Below, in pieces: positions 32,377-37,924 of a stretch of DNA of 64,000 nt (the stretch's first letter is position 1; the number at the start of each line of letters is the position of its first letter). The position numbers and the translations under genes were made by a program. Source of the stretch: an uncultured Phycisphaerae bacterium (GTDB lineage Bacteria; Planctomycetota; Phycisphaerae; UBA1845; JANYLN01); assembly GCA_963767465.1 (NCBI GenBank), contig CAVYDW010000004.1:59176-123175 (forward strand), given 5' to 3'. The notes beneath the pieces are model-generated. The model saw only the letters and a list, made by a program, of their open reading frames with translations. It was not told the DNA's origin and did not search any database.

Positions 32377-32832
32377 CTAATAATGTTGCCGAATCAAAAT
32401 CTGCCCCCATTCCTTCTTTAGTTCCGCGAGCATTGTTTGCAGATGGGCGTTCCCTGGGTCGAGCGCTACTGCTTTCTTCAACTGACTGATGCCCGCCGGG
32501 TAGTTTCCCGCGCGAACCAGTGTGACGGCTTTCTGCATAAGGGCTTGAACGGCGTCGCTGGCACCTGCTCCGGCACCTCCAGGTCGCGTTTCCTGGTGGA
32601 CGAGCTGACTTGCAAGATCGCGGTCGTAGGGCACACGCCTCTTATCGTCGAGCAAAGTCAATTCGGCTTCCAGGAGGAGCTTCATTCTGCGCTCAGCCGC
32701 CTGTCGTCTTTCAAGGTCATGCGCATTGTTCTCACGCTGGCCCCAGACGCGTTGTTCGCGCGTGATCGCCGCCTTAATGCTGTCCGCATCAGCAGAGCGG
32801 TCCAATCTCAAGAGAGCGTAGTAGTCTTCCAT
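32377..32832 (-). CDS. J-like domain protein lacking the HPD motif, with a C-terminal TPR
   Basis: GAGG lies 9 nt before ATG 32832. MEDYYALLRLDRSADADSIKAAITREQRVWGQRENN aligns to DYYEILGV...IKKAYRKLAMKYHPDRN with HPD replaced by GQR. Helix III/IV is ...LLEAELTLLDDKRRVPYDRDL. The C-terminal TPR is AVTLVRAGNYPAGISQLKKAVALDPGNAHL. Confidence 0.7.
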   Translation of the reverse strand: MEDYYALLRLDRSADADSIKAAITREQRVWGQRENNAHDLERRQAAERRMKLLLEAELTLLDDKRRVPYDRDLASQLVHQETRPGGAGAGASDAVQALMQKAVTLVRAGNYPAGISQLKKAVALDPGNAHLQTMLAELKKEWGQILIRQHY

Positions 32833-32850
32833 AAGCCGCACCTCGCAAGG

Positions 32851-33183
32851 TCATCGTCCAGCGCCGGAGTTGACACTGAAGATCAGAATCAGGAGAACAA
32901 TCAGTGCGGTGGTGACTAGGCCGAGAACTACACCGAGCTTCCAGGTGAACCCGGTCGGCTGAGCGCCATCCACCCACACCTTCCCGTCATTCCCATAGAC
33001 GTACAGTGCGTAGTTCCGGCCCTTGTATTCATATTTCACGCCTGTTACAGGAACGCCTGAGACCTCGCACTTCAGCCGAACAGGAAGGCATTCCTCTTTA
33101 AGCCGCTTGTTGGCCGTGACGGGATTCGGCAATTCCCGGAAGTACCCATCAATCAACTCGTGAAGGATCTGGGGATTCACCAT
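32851..33183 (-). CDS. tail-anchored protein (110 aa, single C-terminal TM helix)
   Basis: ATG 33183 overlaps the upstream stop (ATGGTGA); GTG 33204 is an alternative. The soluble domain contains ...VKYEYKGRNYALYVYGNDGKVWVDG... followed by WKLGVVLGLVTTALIVLLILIF. It could instead be the frameshifted C-terminus of the zinc-finger protein. Confidence 0.55.
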   Translation of the reverse strand: MVNPQILHELIDGYFRELPNPVTANKRLKEECLPVRLKCEVSGVPVTGVKYEYKGRNYALYVYGNDGKVWVDGAQPTGFTWKLGVVLGLVTTALIVLLILIFSVNSGAGR

Positions 33184-33764
33184 CTGACCCTGAGCTTTGC
33201 GCACACATCCCTCTTAAGCTCGGAGTGAACGTCCCCCATCAGACGCTCGAACTCATCTGTGTCGAAGCCGTCAATTGCTTCCGCGATGACCTGTTGTTTG
33301 AACTCGGCGATGTGGGAATAGACGTTCATGCCAGTGGACCCCATTAGCAACGCCTGGGGCAAGCGGCCCGAATACTCCTTGGCTTTCCTCTCCTCAAAGA
33401 GGTACTTGGTTGCCACTCGAAGGACCTTCAACAACTGTCCGTACCCTGTGCAAGTACCACAATCCTGATGGCCATCGCCGCAGTTACAAGTATACTCCGT
33501 TTTCCCATTCGTCCAGCGCACCTTCCCGCCACAGGTCTGGCATTTGACCCGTCCTTGACCGCGGCAATGTGGGCATTTGTAAACGTGGCCCATTGAAACG
33601 ACGAACCTCTCGCCCTCGATGGGCTGAAATCCATCGGGGAAATTCGTCTCATAAGCCCAGAGGGTCCCGGCCGACTCGTCGTTTATCGTATGCCCTTCGT
33701 AGGTGCTTCCGTCGTAGGGAATCTCCGCAATTTGCGCGGTTCGGTAGGCCATGTAAATGCCCAT
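33177..33764 (-). CDS. DnaJ-type (CxxCxGxG) zinc-finger protein
   Basis: YKCPHCRGQGRVKCQTCGGKVRW...YTCNCGDGHQDCGTCTGYGQL resembles the DnaJ cysteine-rich domain. ATG 33764 is preceded by AAAGG; GTG 33773 and an upstream open frame from ATG 33868 are alternatives. Confidence 0.65.
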   Translation of the reverse strand: MGIYMAYRTAQIAEIPYDGSTYEGHTINDESAGTLWAYETNFPDGFQPIEGERFVVSMGHVYKCPHCRGQGRVKCQTCGGKVRWTNGKTEYTCNCGDGHQDCGTCTGYGQLLKVLRVATKYLFEERKAKEYSGRLPQALLMGSTGMNVYSHIAEFKQQVIAEAIDGFDTDEFERLMGDVHSELKRDVCAKLRVRW

Positions 33765-35438: not shown

Positions 35439-37010
35439 GTATCTGTTTAGCGGCCTGAAAGACACTGATTGGTGAGCGGAGTGGTTGGCATATAATAGTG
35501 TTGCCGCCGGCGCGGTGGAACTTGGGTTGCGACGCGGTTGGAACCGGCGAGCAAGCGGGGTCAAGGATGGCCCGAGCGAGTTACGAAGAACTTCTGGCCG
35601 AGAATCAGCAACTCCGGCAGCGAGTAACGGAACTGGAAGGGCAGGTTCGGCAGTTGACCGCTCAAGTTCGCGAACTGACCGCCCAATTCCAGGAAGCCCT
35701 GCGAGCCACCAAACGGCAAGCCGCGCCGTTTTCCAAGGGACCGCCCAAAGCAAACCCTAAGCTTCCCGGTCGCAAGGCCGGGGCAGATTATGGTCCCAAG
35801 GCGCATCGCCCTCTGCCGGAGCAGATGCCTGACGAGATCCACGACGTGCCTCTGCCCGAGCGGTGCCCCGACTGCGGCGGGCCTGTGCGGGAAGATCACA
35901 TCGATCGGCAATTCCAGGTCGAAATCCCGCGCAAGCCCCTCGTACGGCGGTTCGATGTCCACGTCGGAGGGTGCCGCGCGTGCGGCCGACGCATTCGTCC
36001 GCGGCATCGCTTGCAGACCTCGCAGGCGAGCGGGGCGGCGGCCTCACAGACCGGACCGGACCTGCAAGCCCTGATCGCGATGATGAAGGACAAGTACGGA
36101 CTGAGTTACGGGGACATCCAGGGACTGTTAAATGACGGCTTCGGCATCTCGATCAGCCGAGGCGGGGCCGCCCAGGTCGTGCAGCGGGCAGCGCAGCGAG
36201 CCGAAGCGTTCTACGACCGCATCGGCCAGATCGTGCGGGCCAGCGATACGGTCTATCCCGACGAGACGGGCTGGAAGGTCGGCGGGCTGCTGAAGTGGCT
36301 ATGGGTCTTCGCGGGCGAGCAGGTCAGATACTACGTGATTCGTCCCAGCCGCGGCCGCGATGTGCTGGAAGAGGTGCTGGGCAGAGACTATAGCGGGTGG
36401 ATGACGCATGACGGGTGGGCTCCGTATGACGGCCTGGAGCAGGCGGAGCATCAGCAGTGTGTCACCCACCTGCTGCGCCGGGCCCAGGACCTGTTGGAAC
36501 GGGCCCGCCGCGGGGCGGTCCGCTTCCCGCGGCAGGTTCACCAATTGTTGCTGGACGCCCTGGACCTGCGGGACCGACGGGATGTCTTTTCGATCAGCTC
36601 TTACGGCTTGGCTGTAGCGCAGGGGCGATTGGAATCGCGACTGAAGGGATTGCTGGGCTGGAGGCTCTCGCACGAAGGTAACCGGAAGTTCCGGGACCAT
36701 TTGGCCCGGCACGCCGAACAGATCCTCACGTTCCTGTACGTATGGGGGCTGGAGGCGAGCAACTGGCCAGCCGAGCAGGCGATCCGTCCGATGGTGGCCA
36801 ATCGCAAGGTCTTCGGGGGAAATCGCACGTGGGCCGGGGCCCATGCCCAGGAGGTGCTGGGTAGTCTGTTTGCCACCTGCTCAGCAGACCCGCGACAGCC
36901 TGAGGTTGCTGTCAAACCTGATTCGCGCCACACCCCGTCAGCGAGCCGCCTACCTTGGGCACTTCCTCCCCGCCCCGGCGGGCTAACACCTCAGACCGCT
37001 AAACAGATAC
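35439..37010 (+). mobile_element. IS66-family insertion sequence, copy B (1572 bp) inside the Hsp70 gene
   Basis: It has the same termini as copy A. An 8-bp target duplication AGCTGTTG lies at 35431-35438 and 37011-37018. All six-frame ORFs are identical to copy A at a constant offset of 4988 until a 2-bp difference near the 3' end. Confidence 0.9.
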
Positions 37011-37129
37011 AGCTGTTGAAGGCGTATGCCAAGGCGGCAGCGGTCGGCTCGTTGATAAGTCTCAGGACATTCAGTCCGGCAATACGCCCGGCGTCCTGTG
37101 TTGCCTTGCGCTGGGCGTCCCCGAAGTAG
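35567..37129 (+). pseudogene. IS66-family transposase, copy B; a 2-bp deletion changes the last ~35 codons and reads out of the element
   Basis: CACCTGCGCTCAGCAG in copy A (about 31887-31902) is CACCTGCTCAGCAG here (about 36875-36888). The tail becomes ...FATCSADPRQPEV... and runs through the right IS end to 37129. Confidence 0.8.
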
Positions 37130-37924
37130 GCAGGGACGGCGATAACAGCATCTTTGATTGGCTCCCCCAGAGCCCTCTCGGCGTCCTCTCTTAGGCGTTT
37201 GAGGATGATGGCCGAAATGTCCTCAGATGTGAATGTTTCGCCGCGCTCTGTGCAGAACCGCCAAGAAGGGTCTCCCATGTGGCGCTTTACGAACTGCACG
37301 ACGTTAAGCGGGCGGGCAACTGCCGACTGTTTGGCAATCGTGCCGACAATTGGACTGTCACCGTCGAACAAGACGACTGAAGGCGTAATCCGTTCCCCTT
37401 CGCGATTAGGAATGATCTCCGGGCCACCCTCGGCATTCACCGCCGCAATAGCCGAAAAGGTAGTGCCCAAGTCTATCCCGACTACTCGCCCCACGGTTGA
37501 ACACTCCTTTCCCGATCTCTATTTGATCAGGCCACTGGCTCACCCTTTGGCATGTATCCCTGCCAGGTGGCCTGCCTTTGGGCCGCGCCCTCTGAATGGC
37601 ACTGCCGTAGATATCTCCCCATGTTATAGCCCGTTATGGATTGAGCAATGCGCGTTCCGGAAAATATGGCCACATTTTTCCGGATATTCTGGCCACCTTT
37701 GCCGACGATGGCCACTGACGGCTCGCGGCTGTTGCCGCGAGGGATTTATCGCTTTGATGCTAATCCCGAAGGGTGAGGAAAGACGGGCGGCATGACGTCG
37801 TCGCCGCCCGCCCTTCGGTCTTAGCCCCTGGGTCGGCGCTCGGGTCGGTTCCCACCGGCGCCCTATCCTCCGCCCAGGTCATCTTCGATCCTATCGATCA
37901 GCCGTGGTCCCGCAAGGTCCACCC

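Follow-up and report, generated by a model that had tools for sequence, protein, structure and literature searches.

A pseudogenized gene cluster in a Phycisphaerae genome belongs to a rare family combining a lid-less Hsp70, a J-like/TPR adaptor, and a membrane-anchored zinc-finger protein

We analyzed a 64,000-nucleotide stretch of contig CAVYDW010000004.1 from an uncultured Phycisphaerae bacterium (positions 59,176 to 123,175, forward strand; hereafter the window), focusing on a group of minus-strand genes around an hsp70 gene that an earlier annotation, made from the letters alone (the sequence-only reading), had described as a five-gene operon. The window carries a pseudogenized copy of a rare, horizontally transferred cluster whose intact core consists of three genes. 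These encode an Hsp70 without the helical lid (Hsp70a), an adaptor joining a J-like domain to a tetratricopeptide repeat (TPR)-like module, and a zinc-finger protein with a C-terminal transmembrane (TM) helix (ZnF-TM). The window copy itself is a non-functional relic, in which hsp70 is split by an insertion sequence (IS), the ZnF-TM gene contains four frameshifts, and the downstream gene is truncated.

RESULTS

The window copy is a pseudogenized relic

The minus-strand open reading frames (ORFs) at this locus comprise two halves of hsp70 (36991-37494 and 34277-35398) and ORFs of 69 aa (34042-34251), 198 aa (33177-33773), 117 aa (32851-33204), and 151-154 aa (32377-32841). The sequence-only reading took these for five closely packed, co-directional genes. 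The ORFs and their shared strand are real, as are the short spacers on which that reading relied (25 nt between hsp70 and the GYF ORF, an ATGGTGA overlap, and 18 nt before the ATG at 32832), but the five-gene operon is a frameshift artefact.

The artefact becomes apparent from three related loci (L007, L008, and L009), whose Hsp70 is 88% identical to that of the window. Their gene order is Hsp70 (524 aa), a 464-aa protein with a GYF_2 domain, a 150-aa J-like protein, and proteins of 355 and 72 aa. In L007, the 464-aa protein runs from the GYF domain through a Pro/Thr/Ala-rich linker into the zinc-finger core and the TM helix, and positions 8515-11812 of this locus align with window positions 35400-32089 at 88.8% nucleotide identity. 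Relative to L007, the window gene has gained one base at 34064 and one at 34043 and has lost one near 33782 and one near 33196. Four indels in one gene thus produced the separate "GYF," "zinc-finger," and "tail-anchored" ORFs, and the frame changes match exactly.

Complete homologues P0002 (337 aa) and P0003 (335 aa) likewise continue from the zinc-finger part into the "tail-anchored" sequence. Their conserved N-terminus, M(D/N)(K/R)WSGAF...LPSGLG, is found in the window in the third frame, and in L002 the frame is open further upstream (SSPYITAAM, compared with VSPYIVNAM in the window). The 69-aa GYF ORF, proposed earlier as a stand-alone adaptor, is therefore a fragment of the 464-aa fusion. 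We considered and rejected a GYF gene of its own followed by a TTG-started, overlapping downstream gene, since the fusion is found in L007, L023/24, and L010 and the stop is accounted for by two +1 indels.

The hsp70 gene is interrupted by an IS66-family element (35439-37010) flanked by the two copies of an 8-bp target duplication (plus-strand sequence AGCTGTTG) at 35431-35438 and 37011-37018; the final 8 nt of the hsp70 5' fragment (37011-37494) are the right copy of this duplication. Excising the element together with one copy of the duplication rejoins hsp70 in frame over 545 codons, the length given by the sequence-only reading. This length is real as a reading frame but inflated as a protein, because +1 indels at 34369, 34333, and 34299 have created an aberrant 34-residue tail. 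Intact orthologues of 507-525 aa stop 10-13 residues past a conserved QEK or its equivalent. Assignment of the element to IS66 is supported by the match of its transposase to PF03050 (DDE_Tnp_IS66; 6e-34) and, at both copies in the window, by 20-nt inverted repeats and 8-bp target duplications.

The features of the relic and of the displaced parts of its island are as follows:

37011-37494, minus strand: hsp70 5' fragment, codons 1-161 with a GTG start; the rejoined protein matches Pfam HSP70
35439-37010, plus strand: IS66-family copy 2, 1572 bp, inside hsp70, with 20-nt terminal inverted repeats
34277-35438, minus strand: hsp70 3' fragment encoding the rest of the nucleotide-binding domain (NBD), the linker, and the beta-sandwich of the substrate-binding domain (SBD-beta), with the aberrant 34-residue tail
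32851-34251, minus strand: pseudogene for GYF, Pro-rich linker, zinc-finger core, and C-terminal TM helix; intact in L007 at 464 aa
32377-32832, minus strand: J-like/TPR adaptor gene of 151 aa; no other gene of the module is intact
32090-32316, minus strand: 5' remnant of a fourth gene, roughly 75 codons, frameshifted by +2 at 32142; the remainder was lost at IS copy 1
30451-32024, plus strand: IS66-family copy 1, 1574 bp, with an 8-bp target duplication, GATTTGAC
27292-27511, minus strand: homologue of the L007 72-aa gene, 85% nucleotide identity; an IS21-family element and IS66 copy 1 intervene before the module
41961-42116, minus strand: stretch matching the region upstream of L007 hsp70, 71% homologous, at the far edge of the relic island beyond IS21 and IS4-like insertions

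Two other accounts of the broken frames have to be weighed against decay. One of them keeps five functional genes, in which the GYF adaptor (69 aa), a soluble zinc-finger protein, and a small effector with a tail anchor are each made separately. The ORF boundaries are indeed real, the short spacers and overlaps resemble translational coupling, and the public gene call for the contig predicts the zinc-finger fragment as a 195-aa protein (P0001). However, the zinc finger and TM helix form one protein of 335-390 aa in every intact homologue (P0002, P0003, L016, L020, L022, and 21 full-length database representatives), and GYF is also fused in the four closest loci (464 aa in L007). Moreover, the "SPYI..AM(D/N)(K/R)WSGAF" N-terminus lies in the third frame here without a start codon of its own, and four single-base indels account fully for the frame changes. 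Comparison with relatives already refutes the five-gene arrangement, to which we attach a next to negligible probability. The frameshifts could instead be sequencing or assembly errors, in which case the ZnF-TM gene would be intact in the organism and only hsp70 disrupted by the IS. One of the four ZnF-TM indels falls in a GGG run, the two IS66 copies differ solely by a 2-nt indel with zero substitutions, and the sequence is known from one contig. We nevertheless regard such errors as distinctly unlikely to explain the locus and read the indels as real decay, because three of the four ZnF-TM indels lie outside homopolymers and ORFs of 1071, 1026, and 1016 aa elsewhere in the window are unbroken, compared with eight indels within 3.3 kb of the island. 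The IS insertions and the deletion independently indicate decay of the island.

The relic stands out from its surroundings by a GC content of 0.56-0.58, compared with 0.64-0.70 in the flanks. Both the lower GC content and the foreign, IS-struck character of the island had been pointed out before, and the composition and the insertion elements bear them out. The fourth-gene remnant (32090-32316) and the fifth island gene, displaced to 27292-27511, were overlooked in the sequence-only reading; the gaps between the displaced island parts are occupied by IS21-family, IS66-family, and IS4/5-like elements. In L007, the product of the fourth gene (11587-12654) is a membrane protein of 355 aa in which "DWLG" motifs recur and NCBIfam recognizes a CFI-box-CTERM domain (56 bits; cutoff, 40). 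Linkage of this gene to the triad was observed solely in L007-type loci.

Intact relatives occur in few but distant genomes

Searches with the zinc-finger core covered species representatives, which were scanned with a trimmed alignment, as well as metagenomes and viral contigs, and all components were mapped by tblastn. A close ZnF-TM was found in 2 of 185,579 species representatives, namely, a Candidatus Methanoperedens metagenome-assembled genome (MAG) and an Acidobacteriota MAG, and the zinc-finger core was found in nine metagenome loci. A word-indexed search with the zinc-finger ORF returned seven homologues, and a hidden Markov model (HMM) search of 1.8 billion representatives returned 136 at E < 1e-3, including 21 full-length proteins at E < 1e-30. 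Identity between bacterial and archaeal copies is 60-65%, an indication of transfer. IMG/VR viral contigs yielded neither ZnF-TM nor any Hsp70a above 44% identity; on these grounds, a phage origin was set aside for now.

The intact triad is present in about 10 independent loci on planctomycete-like contigs and in an Acidobacteriota MAG. Conserved synteny in other genomes, which the sequence-only reading had named as a test of its own proposal, was thus found. Three architectures can be distinguished. In variant B, represented by the window, L007-9, L023/24, and L010, the order is Hsp70a, GYF-ZnF-TM, and J-like/TPR adaptor. Variant A (L020, L022, and L016, the last on the same contig as L025; partial in L021, L002, and L006) comprises GrpE, Hsp70b, Hsp70a, the J-like/TPR adaptor, ZnF-TM, a protein combining a zinc ribbon, a J-like domain, and two TM helices, and a HerA/DUF87-like ATPase of about 1000 aa. 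In variant C (L001, L015, and L027), ZnF-TM comes after a TPR-module protein and Hsp70 is absent from the vicinity, and in L026 ZnF-TM stands alone. The boundaries of the system are therefore wider than first noted, as other loci add the CFI-box membrane protein or else GrpE, a second Hsp70, a second J-like protein, and the HerA-like ATPase.

Hsp70a lacks the lid and is closer to DnaK than to HscC

The Hsp70 of the window matches Pfam PF00012 (HSP70) at 2e-128 (429.7 bits against a cutoff of 20.6), and the match stops at profile position 517 of 599. By alignment, Hsp70a consists of NBD, linker, and SBD-beta and ends near DnaK residue 538, with the lid helices missing, as had been read from the window sequence. 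The ATPase motifs that had been listed are also present, including LLTGGSTRM. All six ATPase residues (D8, K70, E171, D194, T199, and D201 in DnaK) are conserved in the window protein and 10 relatives. Hsp70a further retains R167, N170, and T173, which are J-domain contacts in DnaK, and its interdomain linker reads V(R/E)I(Q/R)D, compared with VLLLD in DnaK.

Scores for the DnaK equivalog models NF001413 and TIGR02350 did not reach their cutoffs (424 and 413 bits against 648 and 822, respectively). Hsp70a and the Hsp70b of variant A form two lid-less sister clades that are about 44% identical to each other. Their identity is 40-44% to Escherichia coli DnaK, 35-37% to HscA, and 32-35% to HscC, and a neighbor-joining tree placed both next to DnaK. 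The earlier suggestion of an HscC-type paralogue thus has no sequence support, as Hsp70a branches nearer DnaK and clusters with HscC neither by identity (33% for the window protein) nor in the tree. We rejected HscC membership on the lower identity than to DnaK, the missing lid, and the unrelated partners. The Hsp70a family is sizeable. Among its best 120 matches, which include proteins from Thermoactinomycetaceae, all are at least 56% identical and 499-540 aa long, except for the window fragment and one 764-aa fusion. The closest organism-labeled relative (P0009) is 75% identical and labeled Planctomycetia.

Conserved neighbors bear out the proposal that this Hsp70 has a dedicated partner set, and a J-like/TPR protein regularly follows Hsp70a even where ZnF-TM is absent (L011, L029, and L030). 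Lid-less DnaK variants bind and release faster and accept bulky clients, according to the passages retrieved from PMC8215388 and bioRxiv 2025.11.14.688446. A fast-exchange, lid-less SBD would fit a regulatory or holding role better than refolding.

Several Hsp70a loci show further arrangements. In L030 (4732-15524), GrpE, Hsp70b, Hsp70a, and the J-like/TPR protein occur without ZnF-TM beside genes for a prophage capsid, protease, and portal; a DUF87 ATPase lies 5 kb downstream. In L029 (7001-15398), Hsp70a and its J-like/TPR partner lie near a MoxR AAA+ protein and a 1053-aa von Willebrand factor A (vWA) protein. The Hsp70a/J pair thus seems to be a module that is re-used with different partners. 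In L024, Hsp70a is extended at its N-terminus by 240 aa, and a separate 383-aa gene immediately upstream is a paralogue of this extension.

The adaptor combines an HPD-less J-like domain with a conserved TPR-like module

In the window adaptor, both domain assignments made by the sequence-only reading are sub-threshold. DnaJ (PF00226) scores 21.2 bits against a gathering cutoff of 27.8, and the best TPR match, a single helix-hairpin-like unit, is TPR_14 at 21.0 bits against 23.5. Orthologues do pass the DnaJ cutoff (34.0 bits for L016 and 30.1 for the L011 partner), and PF00226 is precomputed in the database for six of seven homologues. The TPR-like unit is strongly conserved among the adaptor orthologues.

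Alignment agrees that the HPD motif is replaced in the window protein, where GQR, set in a conserved "RVW..R..NA" motif, fills the HPD columns. Every Hsp70a-linked J-like protein has RVW(S/T)xRxNA(P/A) where DnaJ has (K/Y)HPD; the same sequence is found in the second J-like protein of variant A and in the Hsp70a partner from Staphylospora. The L001 adaptor alone, with no Hsp70 encoded within 10 kb, has kept HPD (FHPDK). Loss of HPD exactly where a private Hsp70a is encoded, together with its retention where none is, suggests an insulated Hsp70/J pair that avoids cross-talk with DnaK.

The C-terminal module is the constant part of the adaptor. In the window protein, it reads "LVRAGNYPAGISQLKKAVALDPGN...KKEWGQILIR," and the pattern L.R.GNYP.AI..LK.A..LDPGN...K.EWGQ.L.R is common to all adaptors adjoining a close ZnF-TM. 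The archaeal adaptors of L015 and L027 have the same TPR module and an N-terminal part that is not a J domain.

Two loci show rearranged adaptor genes. In L006 (1-723), the latter half of a J-like domain ("VNRELRVWSQRTNAPE...") continues within one ORF directly into the end of the Hsp70 NBD and the SBD ("ELHPDEEVAMGAA..."), and a complete J-like/TPR gene follows. Either duplicated J-like sequences underwent deletion or recombination here, or the metagenome assembly is chimeric. In L027, a low-GC, archaeal-looking contig, ORFs at 5779-6891 and 8284-9144 flank ZnF-TM and have N-termini that are identical over 50 residues ("MPDIEIKRGYEVLPDNNVRF..."); the upstream, 370-aa ORF has the TPR module at its C-terminus. 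These paired ORFs could represent a local duplication or a repeat-mediated rearrangement.

ZnF-TM is predicted to be a bitopic membrane protein with a DnaJ-type zinc module

Residues 4-53 of the window GYF ORF match GYF_2 (PF14237; 2.3e-16, 59.7 bits against 25.8), and in intact relatives the 464-aa protein begins with this domain. No Pfam match was obtained for the zinc-finger and TM ORFs of the window, and PF00684 (DnaJ_CXXCXGXG) reached 18.1 bits on the L015 protein against a gathering cutoff of 32.7. The DnaJ-type zinc center recognized by the sequence-only reading is supported by comparing profiles: HHalign aligned the family to residues 135-208 of E. coli DnaJ, its cysteine-rich domain, with a probability of 77% and an E value of 2e-5. 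Across the family, eight cysteines are nearly invariant, and the third motif is CxCGxG. The single C-terminal TM helix was also confirmed, at residues 312-330 of the repaired core.

Regions outside the core vary. The N-terminal addition is GYF here and a zinc ribbon elsewhere; GYF also opens some of the proteins returned by the HMM search, and some distant members carry SH3_3 and YARHG or Sel1 domains beyond the TM helix. Such domains after the helix imply an N-in, C-out topology with the zinc-finger core in the cytoplasm.

AlphaFold2 modeled the ZnF-TM core from a 27-sequence alignment with a pLDDT (predicted local distance difference test) score of 86.8 and a predicted template modeling (pTM) score of 0.71. 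A 9-sequence alignment had given P0002 a pLDDT of only 36.9, which the distant homologues from the HMM search raised. In the model, the cysteine module sits at one end of long beta-strands, which are accompanied by a helical segment, a beta-meander, and the TM helix. A Foldseek search of the PDB with the whole model returned no fold relative, the best match being the DnaJA3 zinc finger (E = 0.087), and the sole match in BFVD was a phage DnaJ zinc-finger protein (E = 3e-4). Low-probability Foldseek matches to picornavirus capsids and to beta-pore-forming toxins (NetF and Epx4) were not taken as evidence. Beyond the DnaJ-like zinc center, the core had no match in Pfam, NCBIfam, or the PDB; weak profile matches of the zinc module were to EMB2737, BSD2, and anti-TRAP, and PDB entry 6ekb (BSD2) also matched weakly (E = 0.71). 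Taken together, ZnF-TM is modeled as one bitopic membrane protein whose cytosolic part would adopt a novel beta-rich fold carrying a DnaJ-type two-zinc module.

Relatives lie on mobile DNA beside defense-related genes

The cluster or its ZnF-TM relatives have mobile-element and defense-type genes as neighbors. L007 is accompanied by a large serine recombinase, DUF2924, and a group II intron. L001 lies in an integrative and conjugative or integrative and mobilizable element (ICE/IME) with an integrase, TrwB, a relaxase, methyltransferases, a HinfI-type restriction-modification (RM) system, and DUF6932; L018/19 lies in a conjugative element with a type I RM system and DUF6932. An OLD/AriA/GajA-like ATPase is found in L017 and VapBC in L003. 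In L016, a CHAT-TPR protease precedes the cluster, and in L024 (1798-9106), a TerY-P triad (vWA, PP2C, Ser/Thr kinase, and TerY_C) and a zinc-ribbon protein lie ahead of it.

The combination is uncatalogued, as the sequence-only reading had supposed: no PADLOC system matched, and literature searches returned no description of the triad. The L017 neighbor matches PDC-M01A, but among 83 OLD-type models, and the large ATPase of variant A matches PADLOC HerA models only in part. A DUF6932 protein matching PADLOC PDC-M63A (L001, 18051-18500; L019, 12366-13010) occurs within a few kilobases of ZnF-TM family genes in two otherwise unrelated mobile elements.

Insertion sequences and genes around the relic

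The two IS66 copies are identical save for a 2-nt (GC) indel at 31891-31892, with no substitutions. The indel makes their transposase ORFs differ in C-terminus and length (496 and 543 aa), and one copy may be non-functional. IS21-family elements (IstA/IstB) lie on both sides of the relic, at 27711-30036 and 37863-40216. The left element also looks decayed, with a truncated IstB (160 aa) and an istA spread across several overlapping ORFs. IS4/IS5-like transposases occupy 40213-41727 and 42130-43668. The lipid A housekeeping genes lpxD and lpxI (25266-27198) directly adjoin the island, placing this cluster of foreign DNA and insertion sequences within a core-gene neighborhood.

DISCUSSION

Many truncated DnaK paralogues occur in bacteria with complex lifestyles, and their function is an acknowledged open question (FEBS J 2026 review, PMC13580251). 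The cluster described here appears, from its sequences, to be an undescribed variant of the theme of a specialized Hsp70 with a dedicated J partner, to which it adds a new family of membrane zinc-finger proteins. The closest studied analogue is HscC with DjlB/DjlC, likewise a non-essential, sporadic Hsp70 paralogue with adjoining non-canonical J proteins (HPE in the HscC partners) and thought to act at the membrane (PMC8215388, PMC10410713). HscC and the window Hsp70 also have in common that lobe I of the NBD carries a deletion and loop L1,2 of SBD-beta an insertion (our alignment; PMC8215388, PMC10410713). The two differ in sequence, at 32-35% identity, and HscC is a protein of 550-580 aa with a shortened lid (PMC8215388), whereas Hsp70a ends near DnaK residue 538. 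Moreover, no DjlB/DjlC-like protein is encoded here, and HscC has neither a zinc-finger membrane protein nor a TPR adaptor. We therefore regard the module as an analogue of the HscC theme, a sporadic Hsp70 with odd J partners at the membrane, rather than a member of that family.

With type I DnaJ, the cluster appears to share a J-type helix bundle and a four-motif, two-zinc cysteine-rich module inserted between beta-strands. Unlike in DnaJ, the J-like domain and the zinc module are on two polypeptides, HPD and the G/F region are absent, and the third motif is CxC rather than CxxC; the rest of ZnF-TM, which is membrane-anchored, has no detectable similarity to the C-terminal domains CTD I/II. 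The idea that a type I DnaJ has been split into parts thus survives in reduced form, as a J-like/TPR chain plus one membrane-anchored zinc-finger chain, but not as the larger number of pieces first proposed. Stand-alone zinc modules, often membrane-anchored, are also found in plastid DnaJ-like zinc-finger proteins without a J domain. One of these is LQY1, which is associated with the plastid membrane. Others (ZnJ6, FIP, and BSD2) are described, in the passages retrieved from PMC7865324 and PMC5915565, as plastid holdases or assembly factors alongside Hsp70 systems. The likeness is limited to the zinc module of about 50 residues, with no homology detectable outside the motif, and these eukaryotic organelle proteins differ in lacking a linked dedicated Hsp70 or J-like adaptor.

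How the components might work together can be outlined as follows. The TPR-like module would bind ZnF-TM; it is the likeliest point of contact because it always accompanies ZnF-TM in these pairs, including those with an exchanged or missing J domain. The J-like domain would then recruit Hsp70 to ZnF-TM at the membrane, and the W-x-x-R-x-N-A loop in place of HPD would make Hsp70a and its J partner an orthogonal pair free of cross-talk with the housekeeping DnaK. L001, which keeps HPD and encodes no Hsp70, would presumably use the DnaK of its host. Adaptor and ZnF-TM could thus form a split, membrane-tethered DnaJ feeding a lid-less Hsp70 able to hold large or folded clients, and ATP cycling of the Hsp70 might gate the state of ZnF-TM as a membrane sensor or effector.

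From the gene neighborhoods, we infer that the module is cargo of mobile elements and not a housekeeping chaperone. They favor a conflict or stress-sensing role on mobile DNA, which we consider an even call. More specifically, the cluster may be a mobile system of the immune or abortive-infection type, in which the lid-less Hsp70 and the HPD-less adaptor restrain ZnF-TM until infection or proteotoxic cues titrate the Hsp70 and set it free; larger versions would add a second Hsp70, GrpE, a HerA-like ATPase, and a caspase-like protease. We put this version forward tentatively, as a possibility with the greater weight on the other side. Several points weigh against the conflict role as a whole. 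The minimal triad contains no recognizable toxin or enzymatic effector, the association with defense genes concerns a handful of loci and comes without an enrichment statistic, and both ZnF-TM and close Hsp70a are absent from IMG/VR viral contigs. In PADLOC-DB v2.0, the Hsp70, GYF, TM, and J-like proteins had no matches, and the zinc module matched PDC-M01B weakly (E = 2e-4 to 1e-3) over the cysteine motif only, so that we rejected this link as anything beyond a lead. Furthermore, many pairs of Hsp70a and J-like/TPR protein occur without ZnF-TM, for example, beside Tad-pilus genes in Staphylospora and near MoxR-vWA genes, and the pair may therefore be a general specialized chaperone whose clients change. 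A J-like domain without HPD may fail to stimulate any Hsp70, and the function as well as the contacts of TPR with ZnF-TM and of the J-like domain with Hsp70a are predictions from comparative sequence analysis.

A role closer to housekeeping would make the cluster a specialized set like HscC with DjlB/DjlC, in which a membrane co-chaperone directs the Hsp70 to the biogenesis or quality control of envelope proteins, such as the CFI-box protein or pilus and secretion parts, without any part in phage or plasmid conflict. HscC and its partners are thought to act at the membrane (PMC8215388), ZnF-TM-free Hsp70a pairs adjoin Tad-pilus genes, the CFI-box-CTERM membrane protein p355 comes after the triad in L007, the zinc module is of the client-binding type of DnaJ, and no toxin domain is present. 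This role sits poorly with the very patchy spread of the module (2 of 185,579 species representatives with a close ZnF-TM), with the 60-65% identity between bacterial and archaeal copies, which points to transfer, and with the ICE, IME, and recombinase settings beside RM, toxin-antitoxin, and OLD-type genes. The ready decay of the cluster in this genome and an Hsp70 that is not HscC-like in sequence also count against it, and we consider it rather doubtful. The module might also be an already described Hsp70 conflict system, namely, that of the GAP1-N2 GTPase (Kaur et al. 2020), type III CoCoNuT, or the fusion of an EACC1 protease with a DnaK-like domain. In the passages retrieved, such predicted systems resemble the cluster in having an Hsp70 NBD/SBD unit, often lid-less, in mobile, defense-linked operons where GrpE, J/TPR proteins, TerY-P triads, caspase-like proteases, and GYF-TM proteins co-occur. 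In particular, passages of PMC7159879 mention Hsp70, GrpE, J/TPR, and planctomycete GYF-TM proteins for GAP1-N2 systems, those of PMC11090510 report lid-less Hsp70 NBD/SBD units and TerY-P triads in CoCoNuTs, and those of bioRxiv 2025.11.14.688446 describe a lid-less DnaK-like domain fused to protease-effector modules; a TerY-P triad (L024) and a CHAT protease (L016) adjoin our cluster as well. However, no GTPase, McrB/McrC (DUF2357), tubulin, or EACC1 was found among the scanned flanking proteins of L016, L024, and L007. The hallmark of GAP1-N2, a GAP1 GTPase with an FNIII-repeat protein, had no match among the scanned flanking proteins of L016, L024, L015, and L007, the flanks having been scanned in part. 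The passages retrieved from these three sources mention neither ZnF-TM nor an HPD-less J/TPR adaptor, and identity with a described system, as compared from those passages, is improbable.

The family is well delimited and experimentally tractable. It offers a fixed set of partners (Hsp70a, the J-like/TPR adaptor lacking HPD, and the membrane-anchored zinc-finger protein) that spreads on mobile elements across bacteria and archaea, and the ZnF-TM core combines a confident AlphaFold model with the lack of a known fold relative. The HPD rule is testable; if true, the pair would be a natural insulated Hsp70/J circuit of interest to chaperone mechanists and synthetic biologists. If a conflict role is true, prokaryotic immunity would gain a membrane system gated by chaperones. 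The value of the window relic lies in pointing to this family and in exemplifying rapid decay of cargo under bombardment by insertion sequences.

Another decayed copy of the same element is found in two sediment metagenomes. In both (L004, 1486-1944; L005, 1766-2224), an 88%-identical ZnF-TM fragment comprising the C-terminal half only ends in unrelated sequence and adjoins an aldo-keto reductase gene.

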